Positions 3,555 to 52,661 of a DNA stretch of 64,000 nt are shown one piece after another (within the stretch, counting starts at the first letter, position 1; the number at the start of each line of letters is the position of its first letter). The DNA is taken from contig JAHBWT010000003.1 of NCBI GenBank assembly GCA_019636815.1, forward strand, positions 8,086 to 72,085, in the 5' to 3' direction. The translations under genes and the position numbers were made by a program. Origin of the DNA: Nitrospira sp. Lineage in GTDB: Bacteria; Nitrospirota; Nitrospiria; Nitrospirales; Nitrospiraceae. The notes below the pieces were generated by a model that ran no database searches, was not told the origin of the DNA, and saw nothing but the letters and a program-made list of their open reading frames with translations.

Positions 3555-6334
3555 CAGGTGTCCTCCCGCGAGGCGGATGCCGTGCACCGGGCCTGTCCAA
3601 GGGCGGTCAACGTCAACAGCGTCGCGCCGAGCACCACCATGAAGACGCCTAGGTCGAAGGCTATTGCGCTGGCGAGGGTGAGGTCGCCGATGAGCGGGAT
3701 GCGCCAGTGGCCGGTTGCGCTGGTGAGAAACGGTGCGCCAGCCAGCATGCTGGCAAGTCCCGTCACGCCGGCCAGCAGCACGCCGGCACCGATCAGAGCG
3801 AGAAAGTCGATCCGCACGCGGGCGAGTATCGGGCGGAGCCCGTCGCCCATATATTGCATGACGAGCGCGAGCGCGGCGACGAGCCCCGCGAGAAATCCGC
3901 CGCCCGGCAGATTGTGGCCGCGCAGGAACACGTAGACTGCCACCAGCAGCGCGAACGGGAGCAGCACCCGTGCCGCCGCCGCGAACAGGATCTGGTTCAT
4001 CGACGGTAAGGGCACGGCCGGCGGCGTGTCGGTGCGCAGTCCGGCCAGGAGCATCCATGCTCCCATGGCCGCCATCCCGAGGACGATGATCTCGCCGAAG
4101 GTATCGAATCCGCGGAAATCGACGAGCAACACGTTCACGACGTTATTCCCGCCGCCACCCGGCACGCTGTGCTCCAGAAAGTACCAGGCGATCGATTCTT
4201 CTTCGCGCGTCAGCACCGCCCATGACAAGCCCGCCACCATCACACCTGCGCCCGTCGCCAGGGCGGCATCGCGCGCTCTCCGCCCGCGCGTCGATTCCCG
4301 CCGCGTCGACTGCGGCAGGAGCGCGAGCGCCATGAGCAGCAACAGCGTCGTGACGACCTCGACGGCGAGCTGGGTCAATGAGAGGTCGGGGGCCGAGAAA
4401 TAGGCGAACGCGATCGAGGTAGCCAGTCCGACGACGCCGGCCAGGATGATGGCGACGACCCGCGTGTGATGCAACCAGACGGCACCGAGGGCCCCGGCCA
4501 TCGCCGCGCCCCACACTACTATACCTAGCGTCGGCGGTACTGCGGGCGTCAGGTTCCCCGCGCCAAACCCATGTACCACGAACGGCCATGCCCCGAGTCC
4601 GAGGAACGTTGCAATGACCAATGCCAGGGAGCGCTGGAGCGAGCCGTTGTGAAGTTGGTTCGTGAACCGGGCCGCAAGGACGATCAAGCCGTCGTACGCG
4701 TGCTGAAAGAGCAATCGTCCCGTGTAGCGCACCGGCACGTGCAGGTGCAGATCATAGTGATGCCGCAGCAGCCAATAGATCACCGCCCCGCCGGCGAGGG
4801 CAACCGCGCTCATGGCCAGCGGCAGCGTGAAGCCGTGCCAGATCGTGATGTGATAAGCGGGCAGCGAGTCCCCGACCACCTCCCGCGCCGCCGCATCCAC
4901 CAGCGGGGCGACGGTATAGTTGGGCAGGACGCCGACCGCGATGCACACGACCGCCAGGATTTCAGCCGGCACCTTCATATAGCGCGGCGGCTTGTGCGGC
5001 GGGTGCGGCAGATCATGCGGCTTGTCGAAGAACACATCGTGGATGAACCGGACTGAGTAGGCGACGCTGAACATCGCCCCCAGCGTGACGGCGGCCGGGG
5101 CGACCCCCTCCAACAACGGCAGACCATGAAGATCGAGCGCTTCGGCAAAAAACATTTCTTTGGAGAGAAACCCGTTGAAGAGCGGGACGCCGGCCATCGC
5201 CGACGCCGCCACGATGGCCAGCGTCGCCGTCTGCGGCATGTTCCGCCAGAGTCCGCCCAGCCGCCGCATGTCGCGGGTTCCGCATTCGTGATCGATGATG
5301 CCAGCCGCCATGAAGAGCGACGCTTTGAAGGTCGCATGGTTGCCGATGTGAAACACCGCGGCAACCGAGGACATCGGCGTATCGAGTCCCAACAGGAACA
5401 CAATGAGGCCGAGGTGGCTGATGGTCGAATACGCGAGCAGGCCCTTCAGGTCGTGCCTGAACATCGCCACGTACGCCCCGAACACCATCGTGACCAGGCC
5501 GACGCCGGTCGTCGTGTATTCGAACACGAGGTTGCCGCCGAGCAAGGGATAGAGCCTCGCAAGCAAAAACACGCCGGCCTTTACCATGGTGGCGGAGTGC
5601 AGATACGCCGAGGCGGGCGTGGGCGCCGCCATCGCCGCGGGCAGCCAGAAGTGAAATGGAAACTGCGCCGATTTGGTGAACGCTCCCAACAGAATCAGCG
5701 CGAGGGCGACATTGAACCGAGGATGATTCCGGATCGCCTCGCGGGCCGAGAACCAGGCGGAGAGCTCGAAGCTCCCGGCAATCTCGCCGATGAGCAGGAG
5801 CCCGGCGAGCAGGGCGAGCCCGCCGCCGCCGGTGACGGCAAAGGCCATGCGCGCACCCTGTCGGGCGAGCGGGCTGTGGGTCCAGAATCCGATCAGCAGG
5901 AAGGAGGAGAGGCTCGTCAGCTCCCAGAACATCACCAACAGCAGCATGTTCTCGGAGAGGACGATGCCCAGCATCGCGGTCATGAACAGCATCAGCAGGG
6001 CGTACAGCCGGCCGATGCGGTCCTGCGGGGACAGGTAATAGCGCGCGTACAGAACGACCAGCAGGCCGATACCGAGAATGAGCAGCGAAAAAAAGAAGCC
6101 CAGTCCGTCGAGCCGGAACGAAAGGTTCAACCCGAGCTGCGGCAGCCACGGCCAGCTCACGAGAATCCGTTCACCCGCCAGGACGGCAGGAGCCTCACCG
6201 GCCAGCAGCGCAAGGCCGCCCGCGATCGGCACGGCGGCGGCCCAAGCGGCGGCGGTGAAGCCCCGGCGCTGCGCAAGGAGCGCGCCGGTGGCGCCGGCGA
6301 GGAAGGGAAGCAGGATGATGATCGGCAGCGTCAT
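3554..6334 (-). CDS. mrpA: Mrp antiporter subunit A with fused MrpB-like C-terminal domain
   Basis: 926 aa. NuoL/ND5-like N-terminal region plus extra C-terminal TM domain. There is no separate mrpB, so this is the six-gene (group 2) Mrp layout. Confidence 0.9.
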   Translation of the reverse strand: MTLPIIILLPFLAGATGALLAQRRGFTAAAWAAAVPIAGGLALLAGEAPAVLAGERILVSWPWLPQLGLNLSFRLDGLGFFFSLLILGIGLLVVLYARYYLSPQDRIGRLYALLMLFMTAMLGIVLSENMLLLVMFWELTSLSSFLLIGFWTHSPLARQGARMAFAVTGGGGLALLAGLLLIGEIAGSFELSAWFSAREAIRNHPRFNVALALILLGAFTKSAQFPFHFWLPAAMAAPTPASAYLHSATMVKAGVFLLARLYPLLGGNLVFEYTTTGVGLVTMVFGAYVAMFRHDLKGLLAYSTISHLGLIVFLLGLDTPMSSVAAVFHIGNHATFKASLFMAAGIIDHECGTRDMRRLGGLWRNMPQTATLAIVAASAMAGVPLFNGFLSKEMFFAEALDLHGLPLLEGVAPAAVTLGAMFSVAYSVRFIHDVFFDKPHDLPHPPHKPPRYMKVPAEILAVVCIAVGVLPNYTVAPLVDAAAREVVGDSLPAYHITIWHGFTLPLAMSAVALAGGAVIYWLLRHHYDLHLHVPVRYTGRLLFQHAYDGLIVLAARFTNQLHNGSLQRSLALVIATFLGLGAWPFVVHGFGAGNLTPAVPPTLGIVVWGAAMAGALGAVWLHHTRVVAIILAGVVGLATSIAFAYFSAPDLSLTQLAVEVVTTLLLLMALALLPQSTRRESTRGRRARDAALATGAGVMVAGLSWAVLTREEESIAWYFLEHSVPGGGGNNVVNVLLVDFRGFDTFGEIIVLGMAAMGAWMLLAGLRTDTPPAVPLPSMNQILFAAAARVLLPFALLVAVYVFLRGHNLPGGGFLAGLVAALALVMQYMGDGLRPILARVRIDFLALIGAGVLLAGVTGLASMLAGAPFLTSATGHWRIPLIGDLTLASAIAFDLGVFMVVLGATLLTLTALGQARCTASASREDT

Positions 6335-10008: not shown

Positions 10009-10214
10009 TACTTCGTCCTGCTCATTCCTAGAATCGAGGAAGCTATCATATAAGGCTTCCCCGCAACAGAATCAACGGTTGCCAATCAATCCGAGCGAGT
10101 AGGCTGCTGGCGACGGTGGCGAGGAATACAATCGCAAGGTCTGGTACTGGTGGGATCAGATCCAGGAGAGATGGAAGCGATCAGGGAATCGTACAAGAGG
10201 AGGATGCAAAGTCC

Positions 10215-21595: not shown

Positions 21596-22225
21596 GTGGA
21601 AAAACCGGCGCGAACACACTTCCACATTCATGATCTGCTTGCTCGTCGTTGGAGTCCTCGTGCGTTTGATGAGCGGCCGGTCGAGACTGATACGCTGCGG
21701 ACGCTTTTCGAGGCAGCCCGCTGGGCGCCCTCCTCGAATAACGAGCAGCCTTGGCGGTTTATCGTGGCGACTAAGCAGCACCAGACGGACTGGAATCGTT
21801 TGTTTGAGTGTTTGGCGGAGGGCAACAGACGATGGGCCTTCCGCGCACCGGTGCTGGTTCTTTCCATTGCCAGTATGCAGTTTGAAGACGATGGGAAGCC
21901 GAACCGCCATGCCTTTCATGATACTGGGTTGGCGACGGAGAATTTTGTGTTACAAGCGACAGCACAAGGGCTGATCGCCCACCAGATGGCGGGTTTCGAT
22001 GTGGAGAGGGCGCGACTCGATCTCCGGGTCCCGGCAGGCTATGAACCTGTTGCCATGATTGCCGTCGGGTATCCAGGTGATTCCGCACTCCTGCCGGAAC
22101 GGTTGCGAGAGCGGGAACTACGCCCACGGGATCGCCGCCCGATTACAGCATGGACATTTTCTGGGCAATGGGGAACCGATTTCCTTGCCACTGATTTAGT
22201 TCAAGAAGAGGAGTCCAGTCGATGA
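21596..22225 (+). CDS. nitroreductase family protein
   Basis: LLARRWSPRAFDERPV..ARWAPSSNNEQPWRF. Confidence 0.85.
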   Translation: MEKPARTHFHIHDLLARRWSPRAFDERPVETDTLRTLFEAARWAPSSNNEQPWRFIVATKQHQTDWNRLFECLAEGNRRWAFRAPVLVLSIASMQFEDDGKPNRHAFHDTGLATENFVLQATAQGLIAHQMAGFDVERARLDLRVPAGYEPVAMIAVGYPGDSALLPERLRERELRPRDRRPITAWTFSGQWGTDFLATDLVQEEESSR

Positions 22226-22953
22226 AATCGTTGAGCAGTAAAGTGGCGATTGTGACCGGGGCTTCGAGCGGAATCGGTCGAGCCATTGCAGAACGAATAG
22301 CCGAGGAAGGCGCTATCGTTGTGGTGAATTATTCAACAAATTCAGAAAAAGCCCAACAGGTGGTCGTGGGAATCCAAGCGAAAGGGGGCAAGGCCTTGGC
22401 GGTCCAGGCCGACATGAGTCGCGCGGCGGATGCCCGTCGTCTTGTGATCGATACGGTCAAGCAATTCAACCGGCTGGATATTCTGGTCAACAATGCGGGC
22501 AAGTTCATGCCAAAACCGCTTGAGGAGACTACGGAGGAGGACTTTGATAGTGTAATTGACCTCAATGCCAAGGGGCCCTACTTCGCCATGCAAGAGGCGG
22601 CAAGAGTGTTGAAAGACGGTGGGCGTATCGTGAATATCTCGACGGGCGGGACACATCTGAGCTTTCCGGGAGCCACAGCCTATCTCGGCAGCAAGGCGGC
22701 GCTTGAGCAGTATACCAAGGGTTTGGCCCAAGAATTGGCTCCCAAGGGAGTTACGGTCAATACCGTTTCACCGGGTTTCACCGAAACGGGGATGATGACG
22801 GAAGAGTACCGGCAAATCGGCATTCAGCTGTCGCCGATGAAGCGGCTCGGAGTTCCTAAGGACATAGCTGATGTCGTCGTGTTCGTGGTGAGCGAGGGTG
22901 CCCGGTGGTTGACGGGGCAGACGATCCAAGTCGGCGGCGGGATTGTCATGTAG
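22222..22953 (+). CDS. SDR family oxidoreductase (FabG-like)
   Basis: TGASSGIGRAIA, NNAG, and YxxxK (YLGSKAAL). Confidence 0.9.
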   Translation: MKSLSSKVAIVTGASSGIGRAIAERIAEEGAIVVVNYSTNSEKAQQVVVGIQAKGGKALAVQADMSRAADARRLVIDTVKQFNRLDILVNNAGKFMPKPLEETTEEDFDSVIDLNAKGPYFAMQEAARVLKDGGRIVNISTGGTHLSFPGATAYLGSKAALEQYTKGLAQELAPKGVTVNTVSPGFTETGMMTEEYRQIGIQLSPMKRLGVPKDIADVVVFVVSEGARWLTGQTIQVGGGIVM

Positions 22954-23171
22954 CAGGATGTTGAAACGGCCGCCAGCGTCGTCTCGCGTCGCTCAGAGGC
23001 TCAACGTACAGGACAGAGTACGCCTCGCGGGGGGCACTGCCGTCTCGACGGCGCGCACAGACGTGACGCTCTTTCCTCATCGCGCCGTGCGCCTCTCCGC
23101 GGCCTTGCTCGGTGAAAGGCGAGTCTTGGCGAGCGGGGGTGGGTGATAGCAGTGCCTGTTTGAACATCCTG
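22954..23171. repeat. structured intergenic repeat, copy B (TIR CAGGATGTTGAAAC / GTTTGAACATCCTG)
   Basis: Starts directly after the TAG stop of the SDR gene and ends at the NmrA RBS. Shows collinear similarity to 51153..51277. Confidence 0.5.
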
Positions 23172-23186
23172 CAGGAGGGAGTGATC

Positions 23187-24137
23187 ATGGCTGAAAGGAA
23201 AATCATTGCCGTTGTGGGCGCGACCGGGGCGCAAGGTGGTGGGCTCGTGCGAGCAATCGTCAATAATCCGGGGAACGAATTCATGGTTCGCGCATTAACC
23301 AGAGACCTGAATTCTGACAAAGCGATGGCACTCAAGAAACTCGGTGCAGAAGTCGTATCGGCCGATTTGGACGATAAAGTCAGTCTCAAACGAGCATTTG
23401 CAGGCGCGTATGGCGTCTTCTGTCTGACCAATTTCTGGGAACACTTTTCTCCAGAAAAGGAATATGCGCAAGCGAAGAATCAGGCCGAGGCAGCCAAGGA
23501 AACAGGGGTGCACCATGTCATCTGGTCTACGCTTGAGGATACGCGACGATGGGTTCCACTCTCAGACAACCGTATGCCGACATTGATGGGCCGGTACAAG
23601 GTTCCGCACTTTGACTCCAAAGGCGAAGCGGATCAGGAGTTCAGCAAGTTGAATCTTCCCGTCACGTTTCTCCTGACCTCGTTTTACTGGGACAATATGA
23701 TCTTCTTCGGCATGGGACCGAAGAAAGGACCGGATGGAGGACTTCTTTTCGTGTTGCCGATGGCCGACAAGAAGTTGCCTGGCATTGCGGTCGAAGATAT
23801 AGGAAAATGCGCCTTCGGCATTTTCAAGAGAGGGAAGGAATACATCGGGAAACGCGTGGGCATAGCTGGTGAACATCTCACCGGCACGGAAATGGCTGCC
23901 GCGCTGACGAAAGCCATGGGACAACCGGTGCGCTACAATGCCGTGACACCCGAGCAGTATCGCGGGTTCGGTTTCCAGGGTGCGGATGATCTTGGAAACA
24001 TGTTTCAGTTCAAGCAAGAGTTCAATGATGAGTTCTGCCGTCCACGCGATCTGGCACATTCAAAAAGCCTCAATCCGGAACTTCAGTCATTTGAAGCTTG
24101 GCTGGCGAAGAATAAGGGCCGCATTCCCATAACCTGA
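23187..24137 (+). CDS. NmrA family NAD(P)-binding protein
   Basis: GGAGGGA RBS; IIAVVGATGAQGGGLVRAI Rossmann motif. Confidence 0.85.
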   Translation: MAERKIIAVVGATGAQGGGLVRAIVNNPGNEFMVRALTRDLNSDKAMALKKLGAEVVSADLDDKVSLKRAFAGAYGVFCLTNFWEHFSPEKEYAQAKNQAEAAKETGVHHVIWSTLEDTRRWVPLSDNRMPTLMGRYKVPHFDSKGEADQEFSKLNLPVTFLLTSFYWDNMIFFGMGPKKGPDGGLLFVLPMADKKLPGIAVEDIGKCAFGIFKRGKEYIGKRVGIAGEHLTGTEMAAALTKAMGQPVRYNAVTPEQYRGFGFQGADDLGNMFQFKQEFNDEFCRPRDLAHSKSLNPELQSFEAWLAKNKGRIPIT

Positions 24138-51042: not shown

Positions 51043-51080
51043 AAAAACAAAAAGGCCGCCTTCTCAGGCGGCCTTTTTCT
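51043..51080 (-). terminator. rho-independent terminator of the metK-ahcY transcript
   Basis: GGCCGCC-TGAGAA-GGCGGCC followed by TTTTTGTTTTT on the minus strand. Confidence 0.75.
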
Positions 51081-51152: not shown

Positions 51153-51277
51153 CAGGATGCTCAAAATGGCAGCCCGGCTAGGCCGCAGGGAGCTCGGCGA
51201 CCGAAGCGTACCCTTGCGGTACGTTGCAGGGAGACGAGCGACTGAGAACAACGCCGGGGGACATTTTCAGCATCCTG
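51153..51277. repeat. structured intergenic repeat, copy A (TIR CAGGATGCTGAAAATG / CATTTTGAGCATCCTG)
   Basis: 16-bp terminal inverted repeat with 1 mismatch, 1 nt after the ahcY TAG. The interior is collinear with copy B: GTCGCTC, CAACGTAC..GTACGC, CTCCCTGCGGCCT. Confidence 0.5.
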
Positions 51278-51278
51278 C

Positions 51279-52661
<1,383 letters not shown>

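Follow-up and report, generated by a model that had tools for sequence, protein, structure and literature searches.

The insertion sequence (IS) IS5 duplicates a 4-bp target whose consensus is YTAR (PMC5009759), and IS711, a member of the IS5 family, duplicates the TA within YTAR (PMC2266754). The IS701 family, which was split from IS4, is phylogenetically widespread and makes duplications of exactly 4 bp that are highly conserved, and most IS4-family elements carry 5′-CA ends (PMC2266710). The present analysis concerns two intergenic spacers, designated copy A and copy B, found in a 64,000-nt stretch of Nitrospira sp. DNA (contig JAHBWT010000003.1, positions 8,086 to 72,085; hereafter the window), which lie at the stop codons of ahcY and of a short-chain dehydrogenase/reductase (SDR) gene, respectively. 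[quoted passage not shown]

This family resembles bacterial MITEs such as Correia/NEMIS of Neisseria, MITEAba12, Nezha and Chunjie in being small (124-200 bp), non-coding and able to fold into a hairpin over its whole length, as well as in its terminal inverted repeats, short target duplication, insertion polymorphism and dispersed intergenic copies, estimated at ~100 per genome. It differs from them in sequence and host, in bearing three copies of the terminus (left, internal inverted pseudo-end, and right) instead of two, in that most of its copies are a core without the right end, and in its mosaic interior with nested smaller modules. The repetitive extragenic palindromic (REP) units and bacterial interspersed mosaic elements (BIMEs) of enterobacteria are also intergenic palindromic units arranged in mosaics with short modules, often after stops or between convergent genes. 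However, REPs are palindromes of 20-40 nt without target duplication, tied to the HUH genes of REP-associated tyrosine transposases (RAYTs), whereas the unit described here is 124-200 nt long, ends in inverted repeats and is flanked by a 4-bp duplication, and on these grounds, although no genome-wide search for RAYT genes was made, a REP/RAYT system was rejected.

Number, distribution and polymorphism of the copies

The copy count proposed as a check by an earlier note, which had described the two spacers from the window alone, revealed that the family extends well beyond them. A scan for two termini 84-114 nt apart, in one genome per bacterial or archaeal species, returned at least 120 loci, and 112 among the 120 matches listed belonged to Nitrospira, Nitrospiraceae or Nitrospirota, with the complete Ca. 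N. defluvii genome among them. A profile (nhmmer) built from 117 copies in other genomes recovered 138 distinct full-length cores of ~124 nt in about 0.8 Mb of Nitrospira/Nitrospiraceae DNA. With one seed per locus left out, the density was ~1 core per 32 kb, which equals that of the window, and extrapolation to a genome of ~4.3 Mb gives a figure on the order of a hundred copies. The copies are dispersed, adjoining housekeeping genes such as ahcY, rpsR, ssb and prs. Several contigs of metagenome-assembled genomes (MAGs) were seen to end within or right beside a copy (L078:3244-3300, L108:2-123 and L011:14-137, where L-numbers denote loci collected from other genomes for comparison), and breaks in the assembly of Nitrospira metagenomes may be due in part to this family.

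Within the window, the relationship between copies A and B, which had been deduced from shared termini and collinear inner blocks, was recovered by three routes. The terminus pattern gave eight matches at up to two mismatches against 2.75 expected, and those with none or one were only the four ends of the two copies. A pairwise alignment of A and B reproduced the collinear inner blocks. Finally, the family profile matched copy A end to end (model positions 1-124, E = 6.2e-24) and copy B at positions 1-77 (22954-23028, E = 2e-12) and again at positions 104-124 at its right end. No third copy of the family was found in the 64 kb.

Empty sites in relatives, another of the proposed checks, were also observed. 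In this comparison, L105 is filled and L066 is empty at the orthologous site, where the gene has an identical C-terminus and TAG in both, while L113 is filled after a TAG where L015 and L081 are empty and present TAA at the same codon. At another site, L081 and L015 are filled with different subfamilies, and in L113 the same TAG is followed by another repeat. Orthologous sites differ between related species in both directions. In addition, a GT-rich/AC-rich hairpin repeat (TTTGTTTGGTT...AACCAAACAAAC) was noticed directly after TAG stops in L066 and L113, occupying in L066 the site that the main family fills in L105; it was located at L066:4832-4906, L081:5040-5092, L113:4068-4119, L090:1839-1884 and 3958-4017, and L045:5270-5341.

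The sites of the two window copies were also compared with those of relatives. After ahcY, the element was absent in all 80 of 80 metagenomic relatives, of up to 84% amino-acid identity. The two closest of them (L121:3255-3380 and L122:2253-2470) carry other long palindromic elements directly after the TAG, that of L122 reading GGGATCGCCGGAGTTG...CAACTCCGGCGATCCC. In L107, a Nitrospiraceae MAG with 84.8% identity to the window over 2.9 kb, copy A is present at the same site. The SDR orthologue in L046/L098 ends with the same last residue and is followed, after the same TAG, by a complete element in the opposite orientation, with a second element upstream, which indicates that this site was either hit independently or rearranged.

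Outside Nitrospira, the same termini of 15-16 nt enclose unrelated interiors, in elements of 110-155 nt, in Binataceae, two Bryobacterales and Turneriella MAGs and in Minicystis rosea (L041:6652-6762, L077:5487-5617, L087:2027-2166, L106:982-1121, L052:4291-4444, L004:7244-7363 and L103:132-251). Perfect 4-bp repeats flank some of them, namely TTAG/TTAG in the two Bryobacterales MAGs and CTAA/CTAA twice in Turneriella. In Turneriella, two direct termini lie 26 nt apart at one end and a single terminus at the other; since this two-plus-one layout is shared, it looks like a property of the transposase system and not an accident of Nitrospira.

The family therefore has features by which MITEs are recognised: it is short and without a transposase gene, bears terminal inverted repeats and, in its composite copies, a target duplication, and occurs as dispersed copies with filled and empty sites. 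Literature searches on Nitrospira MITEs or REPs and on the terminus sequences returned nothing relevant, and the family appears to be undescribed in detail and ordinary in kind, that is, a new MITE family.

Anatomy of the element and of its two window copies

The core of the element measures 121-130 nt and forms a long imperfect hairpin, and the composite that includes it is about 200 nt long. The left arm of the core opens with the true terminus CAGGATGCTGAAAAAG, and the right arm closes with a pseudo-terminus in inverted orientation; the two differ at position 10, where true ends have G and the internal end of the core has C. The outer stem of ~23 bp pairs CAGGATGCTGAAAAAG-CCG-CCAGC with GCTGG-A-CGG-CCTTTTTGAGCATCCTG, and its position-10 mismatch is common to most of the ~135 copies recovered with the terminus pattern. 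The interior is variable, with at least four subfamilies, copy A belonging to the GTCGCTCGTCTCC... type and copy B to the TCGCTCAGAGGCT... type. The apical hairpin CAACGTAC-loop-GTACG is conserved in the family alignment, in which pairs 57-61/74-78 are 97% paired and show compensatory changes.

The right end of the 124-nt hairpin, which had been read as a terminus, has to be reassigned as an internal pseudo-end, and the real right end lies in a further module of ~76 nt that neither window copy retains. This right module was recognisable after 53 of 133 cores (~40%); in 38 cases it followed directly on the core's right end, on the same strand, and in none was it found on the left (examples are L055:6782-6861 and L046:2279-2357, with about 50 further loci). 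It ends in ...TTTTTCCGCAGCCTG, a third, inverted copy of the terminus with G at position 10, followed by YTAR. It was thus shown that the complete element is a unit of ~200 bp made of the core and the right module, whose terminal inverted repeats are CAGGATGCTGAAAAAG on the left and CAGGCTGCGGAAAAAC (inverted) closing the right module.

Some cores also harbor a mini-module of ~45 nt, composed of a GGRAAAGGCGCGTCTTGGCGCGCC hairpin and GGGGTGGGCGGGTGAGAA (a small hairpin plus GGGGTGGGCGGGTGA), with a striking G-rich tail. It is nested in cores at varying positions and in both orientations, and was found once outside a core (loci L028:920-969, L040:5159-5208, L062:3700-3738, L007:882-923, L027:196-219 and L107:7926-7948).

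Copy B (22954-23171, plus strand, 218 nt) is a solo core interrupted twice. As previously described, it begins immediately after the TAG stop (22951-22953) of the SDR gene (22222..22953, plus strand; Pfam adh_short_C2, E = 1.4e-59) and is followed by the ribosome-binding site of an NmrA-family gene (23187..24137, plus strand; Pfam NmrA, E = 6.8e-54), the four nucleotides before the copy being GTAG. Its left terminus (22954..22967, CAGGATGTTGAAAC) is of the true-end type, with G at position 10. The apical hairpin CAACGTAC-loop-GTACG (23002..23022) is followed by an insertion of 63 nt (23029..23091), which is not present in other copies and for which no full-length relative was found in the DNA searched. 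Next come the 3′-arm block of the core (23092..23112), which reads CCTCTCCGCGGCCTTGCTCGG where the family consensus is CGCTGCGGCCTTGCTGG, and a nested mini-module of 42 nt (23113..23154), with its small hairpin and then a G-rich GGGGGTGGGTGA tract. This mini-module is a degenerate member, found at the same position in L028 and L040 and elsewhere in L027, L098, L062, L007 and L021. The right pseudo-terminus (23155..23171, CCTGTTTGAACATCCTG) has the C-equivalent at position 10; the right end of the copy reads GTTTGAACATCCTG, and the ribosome-binding site GGAGGGAG begins 4 nt past it, with the ATG at 23187, 15 nt downstream. Copy B is therefore a core split by a 63-nt insertion and a 42-nt nested mini-module, not a simple longer copy, and lacks both the right module and the right-hand YTAR.

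Copy A (51153-51277, minus strand, 125 nt) is a full-length solo core, also without a recognisable right module or right-hand YTAR, and with its coordinates and sequence as reported before. Its left terminus is CAGGATGCTGAAAATG (51262..51277) and its right pseudo-terminus CATTTTGAGCATCCTG (51153..51168), both on the minus strand. Between it and the ahcY TAG (51279-51281) there is a single base (51278); ahcY (51279..52538, minus strand; Pfam AdoHcyase) is the gene for S-adenosylhomocysteine hydrolase. GTAG stands on the left of both copies, with the TAG of the gene within it. The single mismatch previously seen between the inverted-repeat ends is the same in both, at position 10, with G in the left arm and the C-equivalent in the right arm, and within each copy the position-8 Y finds its match in the opposite arm. 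Both copies fold into long hairpins, of -57 kcal/mol for A and -101.6 kcal/mol for B, the latter with a z of -2.0 that is marginal relative to shuffles.

The absence of the right module and of the right-hand duplication in both copies, together with the two nested insertions of copy B, indicates that these are most likely immobile relics of insertions at the SDR and ahcY stop codons. They are, as inferred from their positions, carried passively, copy A in the 3′ untranslated region (3′UTR) of ahcY and copy B in the SDR-NmrA intercistronic spacer.

Other identities were considered for these sequences. A small protein was suggested by the ATG within CAGGATG on both strands and by a Shine-Dalgarno-like AGGAGAA 13 nt upstream in the right module; however, frames are not kept, since core lengths differ by 1-2 nt (122-126 nt being all common), and a coding role was rejected. 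A sigma-54 or sigma-70 promoter in the right module was discarded because its spacing did not fit when judged by eye, and a promoter scan, made on the window only, found none. A resemblance of the terminus to the end of a CRISPR repeat, which had been pointed out together with the lack of an array, proved irrelevant: the four termini in 64 kb form two inverted pairs and no array of spaced direct repeats. Integron attC sites were also rejected, as the RYYYAAC...GTTRRRY core sites are absent, the termini read CAGGATG.../...CATCCTG, and the copies are dispersed and not arranged in cassette arrays.

A second repeat type, noticed at 15 loci, shares the first ~25 nt (CAGGATGCTGAAAAAGTCCGCCAGC) and has a different palindromic interior of ~100 nt (..GGGAGCGGCCAGGTGCCC..TGCTCGCAGAACGCGCACGAT..), without any Rfam match; it was located at L010:6816-7000, L098:1737-1855, L046:996-1083 and L021:4031-4126, and also in L070, L061, L039 and L051, and part of its interior also follows the ahcY TAG in L121. 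The window additionally contains a direct repeat of 75 nt (264-338 and 10068-10142, 73% identity, 9.8 kb apart), which probably reflects paralogous genes and is unrelated to copies A and B.

Target site, stop codons and partner transposase

The bases immediately 5′ of 117 cores were TAG in 59 and TAA in 17, with C or T at position -4, and TAG or TAA stood immediately 5′ in 82 of 127 evaluable cores. In 55 of these 82, the stop ends an open reading frame (ORF) of at least 80 codons, compared with only 13.6% when every YTAR site of that DNA is considered. Of 42 composites, 14 carried the same 4-mer on both flanks, where 7.3 would be expected (p = 0.0006), with YTAR as consensus; the identical pairs include TTAA, CTAA, TTAG, CTAG and one non-YTAR pair, TTCG. 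This identity indicates that the ~200-bp composite is the transposing unit and that it generates a 4-bp YTAR duplication.

A DDE transposase acting in trans would bind the two outer termini and excise the core together with the right module, and the excised unit would insert into YTAR with a 4-bp duplication, in an IS5-group-like or IS701-like manner. Since a pyrimidine followed by TAG or TAA constitutes a YTAR site, the duplication would regenerate the stop codon. In this way, insertion exactly at a stop would cost the host nothing, intragenic insertions would be purged, and surviving copies would pile up right after stop codons. The stop is not supplied by the element, as the element-free orthologue in L066 has the same last residue and the same TAG as the filled L105. 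Moreover, in L006 (3581-3702) and L100 (2464-2587), each with its right module, the element constitutes the entire spacer between convergent genes and each duplicated 4-mer supplies the stop codon of one gene, which indicates that these genes had overlapping stops before the insertion. Among complete elements, 11 adjoin a stop codon on the left, 10 on the right and 2 on both sides, without orientation bias. The position after TAG reflects the YTAR target and not a 3′UTR function.

The footprint suggests that the partner transposase may belong to the IS5 group or to IS701. The 4-bp YTAR duplication is like that of IS5, the CA with which the termini begin is like that of most IS4-family elements, and the 4-bp duplication and wide spread are like those described for IS701. 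The target of IS701 is also YTAR.

A different route would be an IS630/Tc1-mariner-type transposase that duplicates only the TA within NTAN, with CTAG preferred, the base between TA and CAGG then belonging to the element. TA is the invariant center of both flanks, CTAG is the commonest flank, and the three Turneriella copies all fit a fixed A...C element flanked by TA; in addition, Tc1/mariner ends also begin with CAG. However, a TA-only duplication does not predict that the outer flank positions agree beyond chance, as was observed for -4/+1 (28 vs 19.9, p = 0.005) and for -1/+4 (29 vs 24.0, p = 0.03). The TTCG/TTCG pair has no TA, and in the TTAG/TTAG and CTAA/CTAA cases such an element would have non-complementary first and last bases, so that this route is distinctly improbable and the 4-bp YTAR duplication is preferred.

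Solo cores bring in another explanation, in which they would have spread through a single-strand HUH route (IS200/IS605- or RAYT-like), with insertion 3′ of YTAG and without duplication. They show YTAR on the left only, no duplication, a precise right boundary and a hairpin over the whole length, as HUH elements leave. This proposal is very hard to reconcile with the long terminal inverted repeats and with the 4-bp duplications of the complete form; no HUH gene was seen beside any copy, and many "solo" cores still contain traces of the right module or a duplication at a distance of 74-77 nt. Indeed, in some cores scored as solo, the left 4-mer occurs again 74-77 nt downstream (12 vs 4.1 ± 2.0). 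An HUH origin of the solo cores is thus highly unlikely, and they could have originated when the right module decayed or was deleted, or by some other route.

The core hairpin as a possible functional structure, and the meaning of the family for Nitrospira

Several observations weigh against the mobile-element explanation. No transposase with these ends was found, no isolated terminus lay beside a long ORF or transposase in the collected loci, and tblastn with the E. coli InsH (IS5 transposase) revealed no IS5-like ORF in about 1.2 Mb searched. The likeness to the ends of E. coli IS5, taken from K-12, is weak, amounting to 15/18 with two gaps (AGG-TGC-GAACAAGTCC vs AGGATGCTGAAAAAGTCC), and the family ends start with CA-, whereas those of IS5 start with GG-. 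Perfect duplications are present in only the 14 of 42 composites mentioned above, and solo cores, both window copies included, lack the right-hand duplication, with identical 4-mers in 1 of 97. To these must be added two observations on the hairpin itself. First, the terminal stems contain 118 double-changed cells against 18.9 ± 4.0 in shuffles, a value reached in 0 of 500 shuffles. Second, the copy A orthologues of the window and L107 are 93.7% identical, while their coding flanks are 85.6% identical.

The last two observations speak for the alternative that the core hairpin is, or has become, an RNA or DNA structure under selection, mobility being only its means of spread. It could act in 3′UTRs and intercistronic spacers as a stabilizer of mRNA 3′ ends, an RNase processing site or a protein-binding site, and would then compare to REP/BIME or Correia elements, which influence neighboring genes. 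Compensatory changes are not expected in a dead transposon that decays neutrally, and the double-changed cells, with 94.5% of stem cells paired and compensatory changes at 18 of 28 pairs, are more than debris should show. However, the shuffle control ignores the relatedness of the copies, and the arms of a palindrome can change in concert without selection, through template switching or subfamily founder effects. The inner blocks CGTTCTCGC, CAACGTAC and TGCGGCCTTGCTGG are kept across subfamilies while the right module decays, copy A folds better than its shuffles (z = -5.1), and the same post-stop sites bear different hairpin repeats in different species. With respect to the L107 comparison, seven orthologous pairs were compared and the six others fell within the range of random pairs, giving no clear signal.

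Copy A, which lies between the ahcY stop and an intrinsic terminator (51049..51078, minus strand; a 13-bp stem plus T run, bidirectional in form), should be transcribed. By inference, this places it inside the ahcY 3′UTR and not as the terminator itself. Neither copy received a terminator call, the core has no U tract, and the terminator of the ahcY transcript is that separate hairpin, located between copy A and an IDO-like gene, so a role in intrinsic termination was rejected. A-C mismatches number 92, against 45 G-U pairs, on the strand that is transcribed in the window, the reverse of what selection at the RNA level on that strand would produce, although one helix contributes most of this surplus, which may stem from a small number of events. 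Complete elements also occur in either orientation relative to the stop they touch.

No Rfam family matches the core hairpin: the window gave 0 matches at gathering thresholds, and none fell on the copies, the composite or the second repeat type at E up to 1, the weak sub-threshold matches (leader and small RNA terminator hairpins) being all on the terminator hairpin at 51049-51078. The two identities offered before, a MITE-like element or a conserved 3′UTR RNA, therefore part ways. The first is supported by the hundreds of dispersed copies, the filled and empty sites, the 4-bp duplications and the termini in other phyla. The second has nothing positive in its favor, with no Rfam match, no orientation bias in complete elements and no G-U excess on the strand transcribed in the window. 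An added RNA role is possible but unsupported, selection on the core hairpin is on balance unlikely, and the mobile-element origin is preferred.

A more elaborate proposal joins both aspects. The core would have been domesticated in Nitrospira as a post-stop and intercistronic hairpin analogous to REP/BIME, and the termini would mark an undescribed IS lineage, with two sites at one end and one at the other, spread over at least five phyla. Domestication would explain why the core and its pairing are kept while the true right end decays, as well as the replacement of hairpins at post-stop sites, but this scenario is also considered doubtful.

Nitrospira includes the main nitrite oxidizers and the complete ammonia oxidizers of soils and water treatment, and its genomes are nearly all metagenome assemblies. 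A repeat present at an estimated ~1 per 30 kb explains many odd conserved spacers in these genomes and can be masked or annotated, and its filled and empty sites constitute markers for strain and lineage typing. An element that duplicates YTAR can land harmlessly on a stop codon of the TAG or TAA kind, including one that two convergent genes share, as in L006 and L100, so that stop codons act as safe harbors. An effect of the hairpins on mRNA stability or operon polarity, if there is one, would bear on many housekeeping genes at once.

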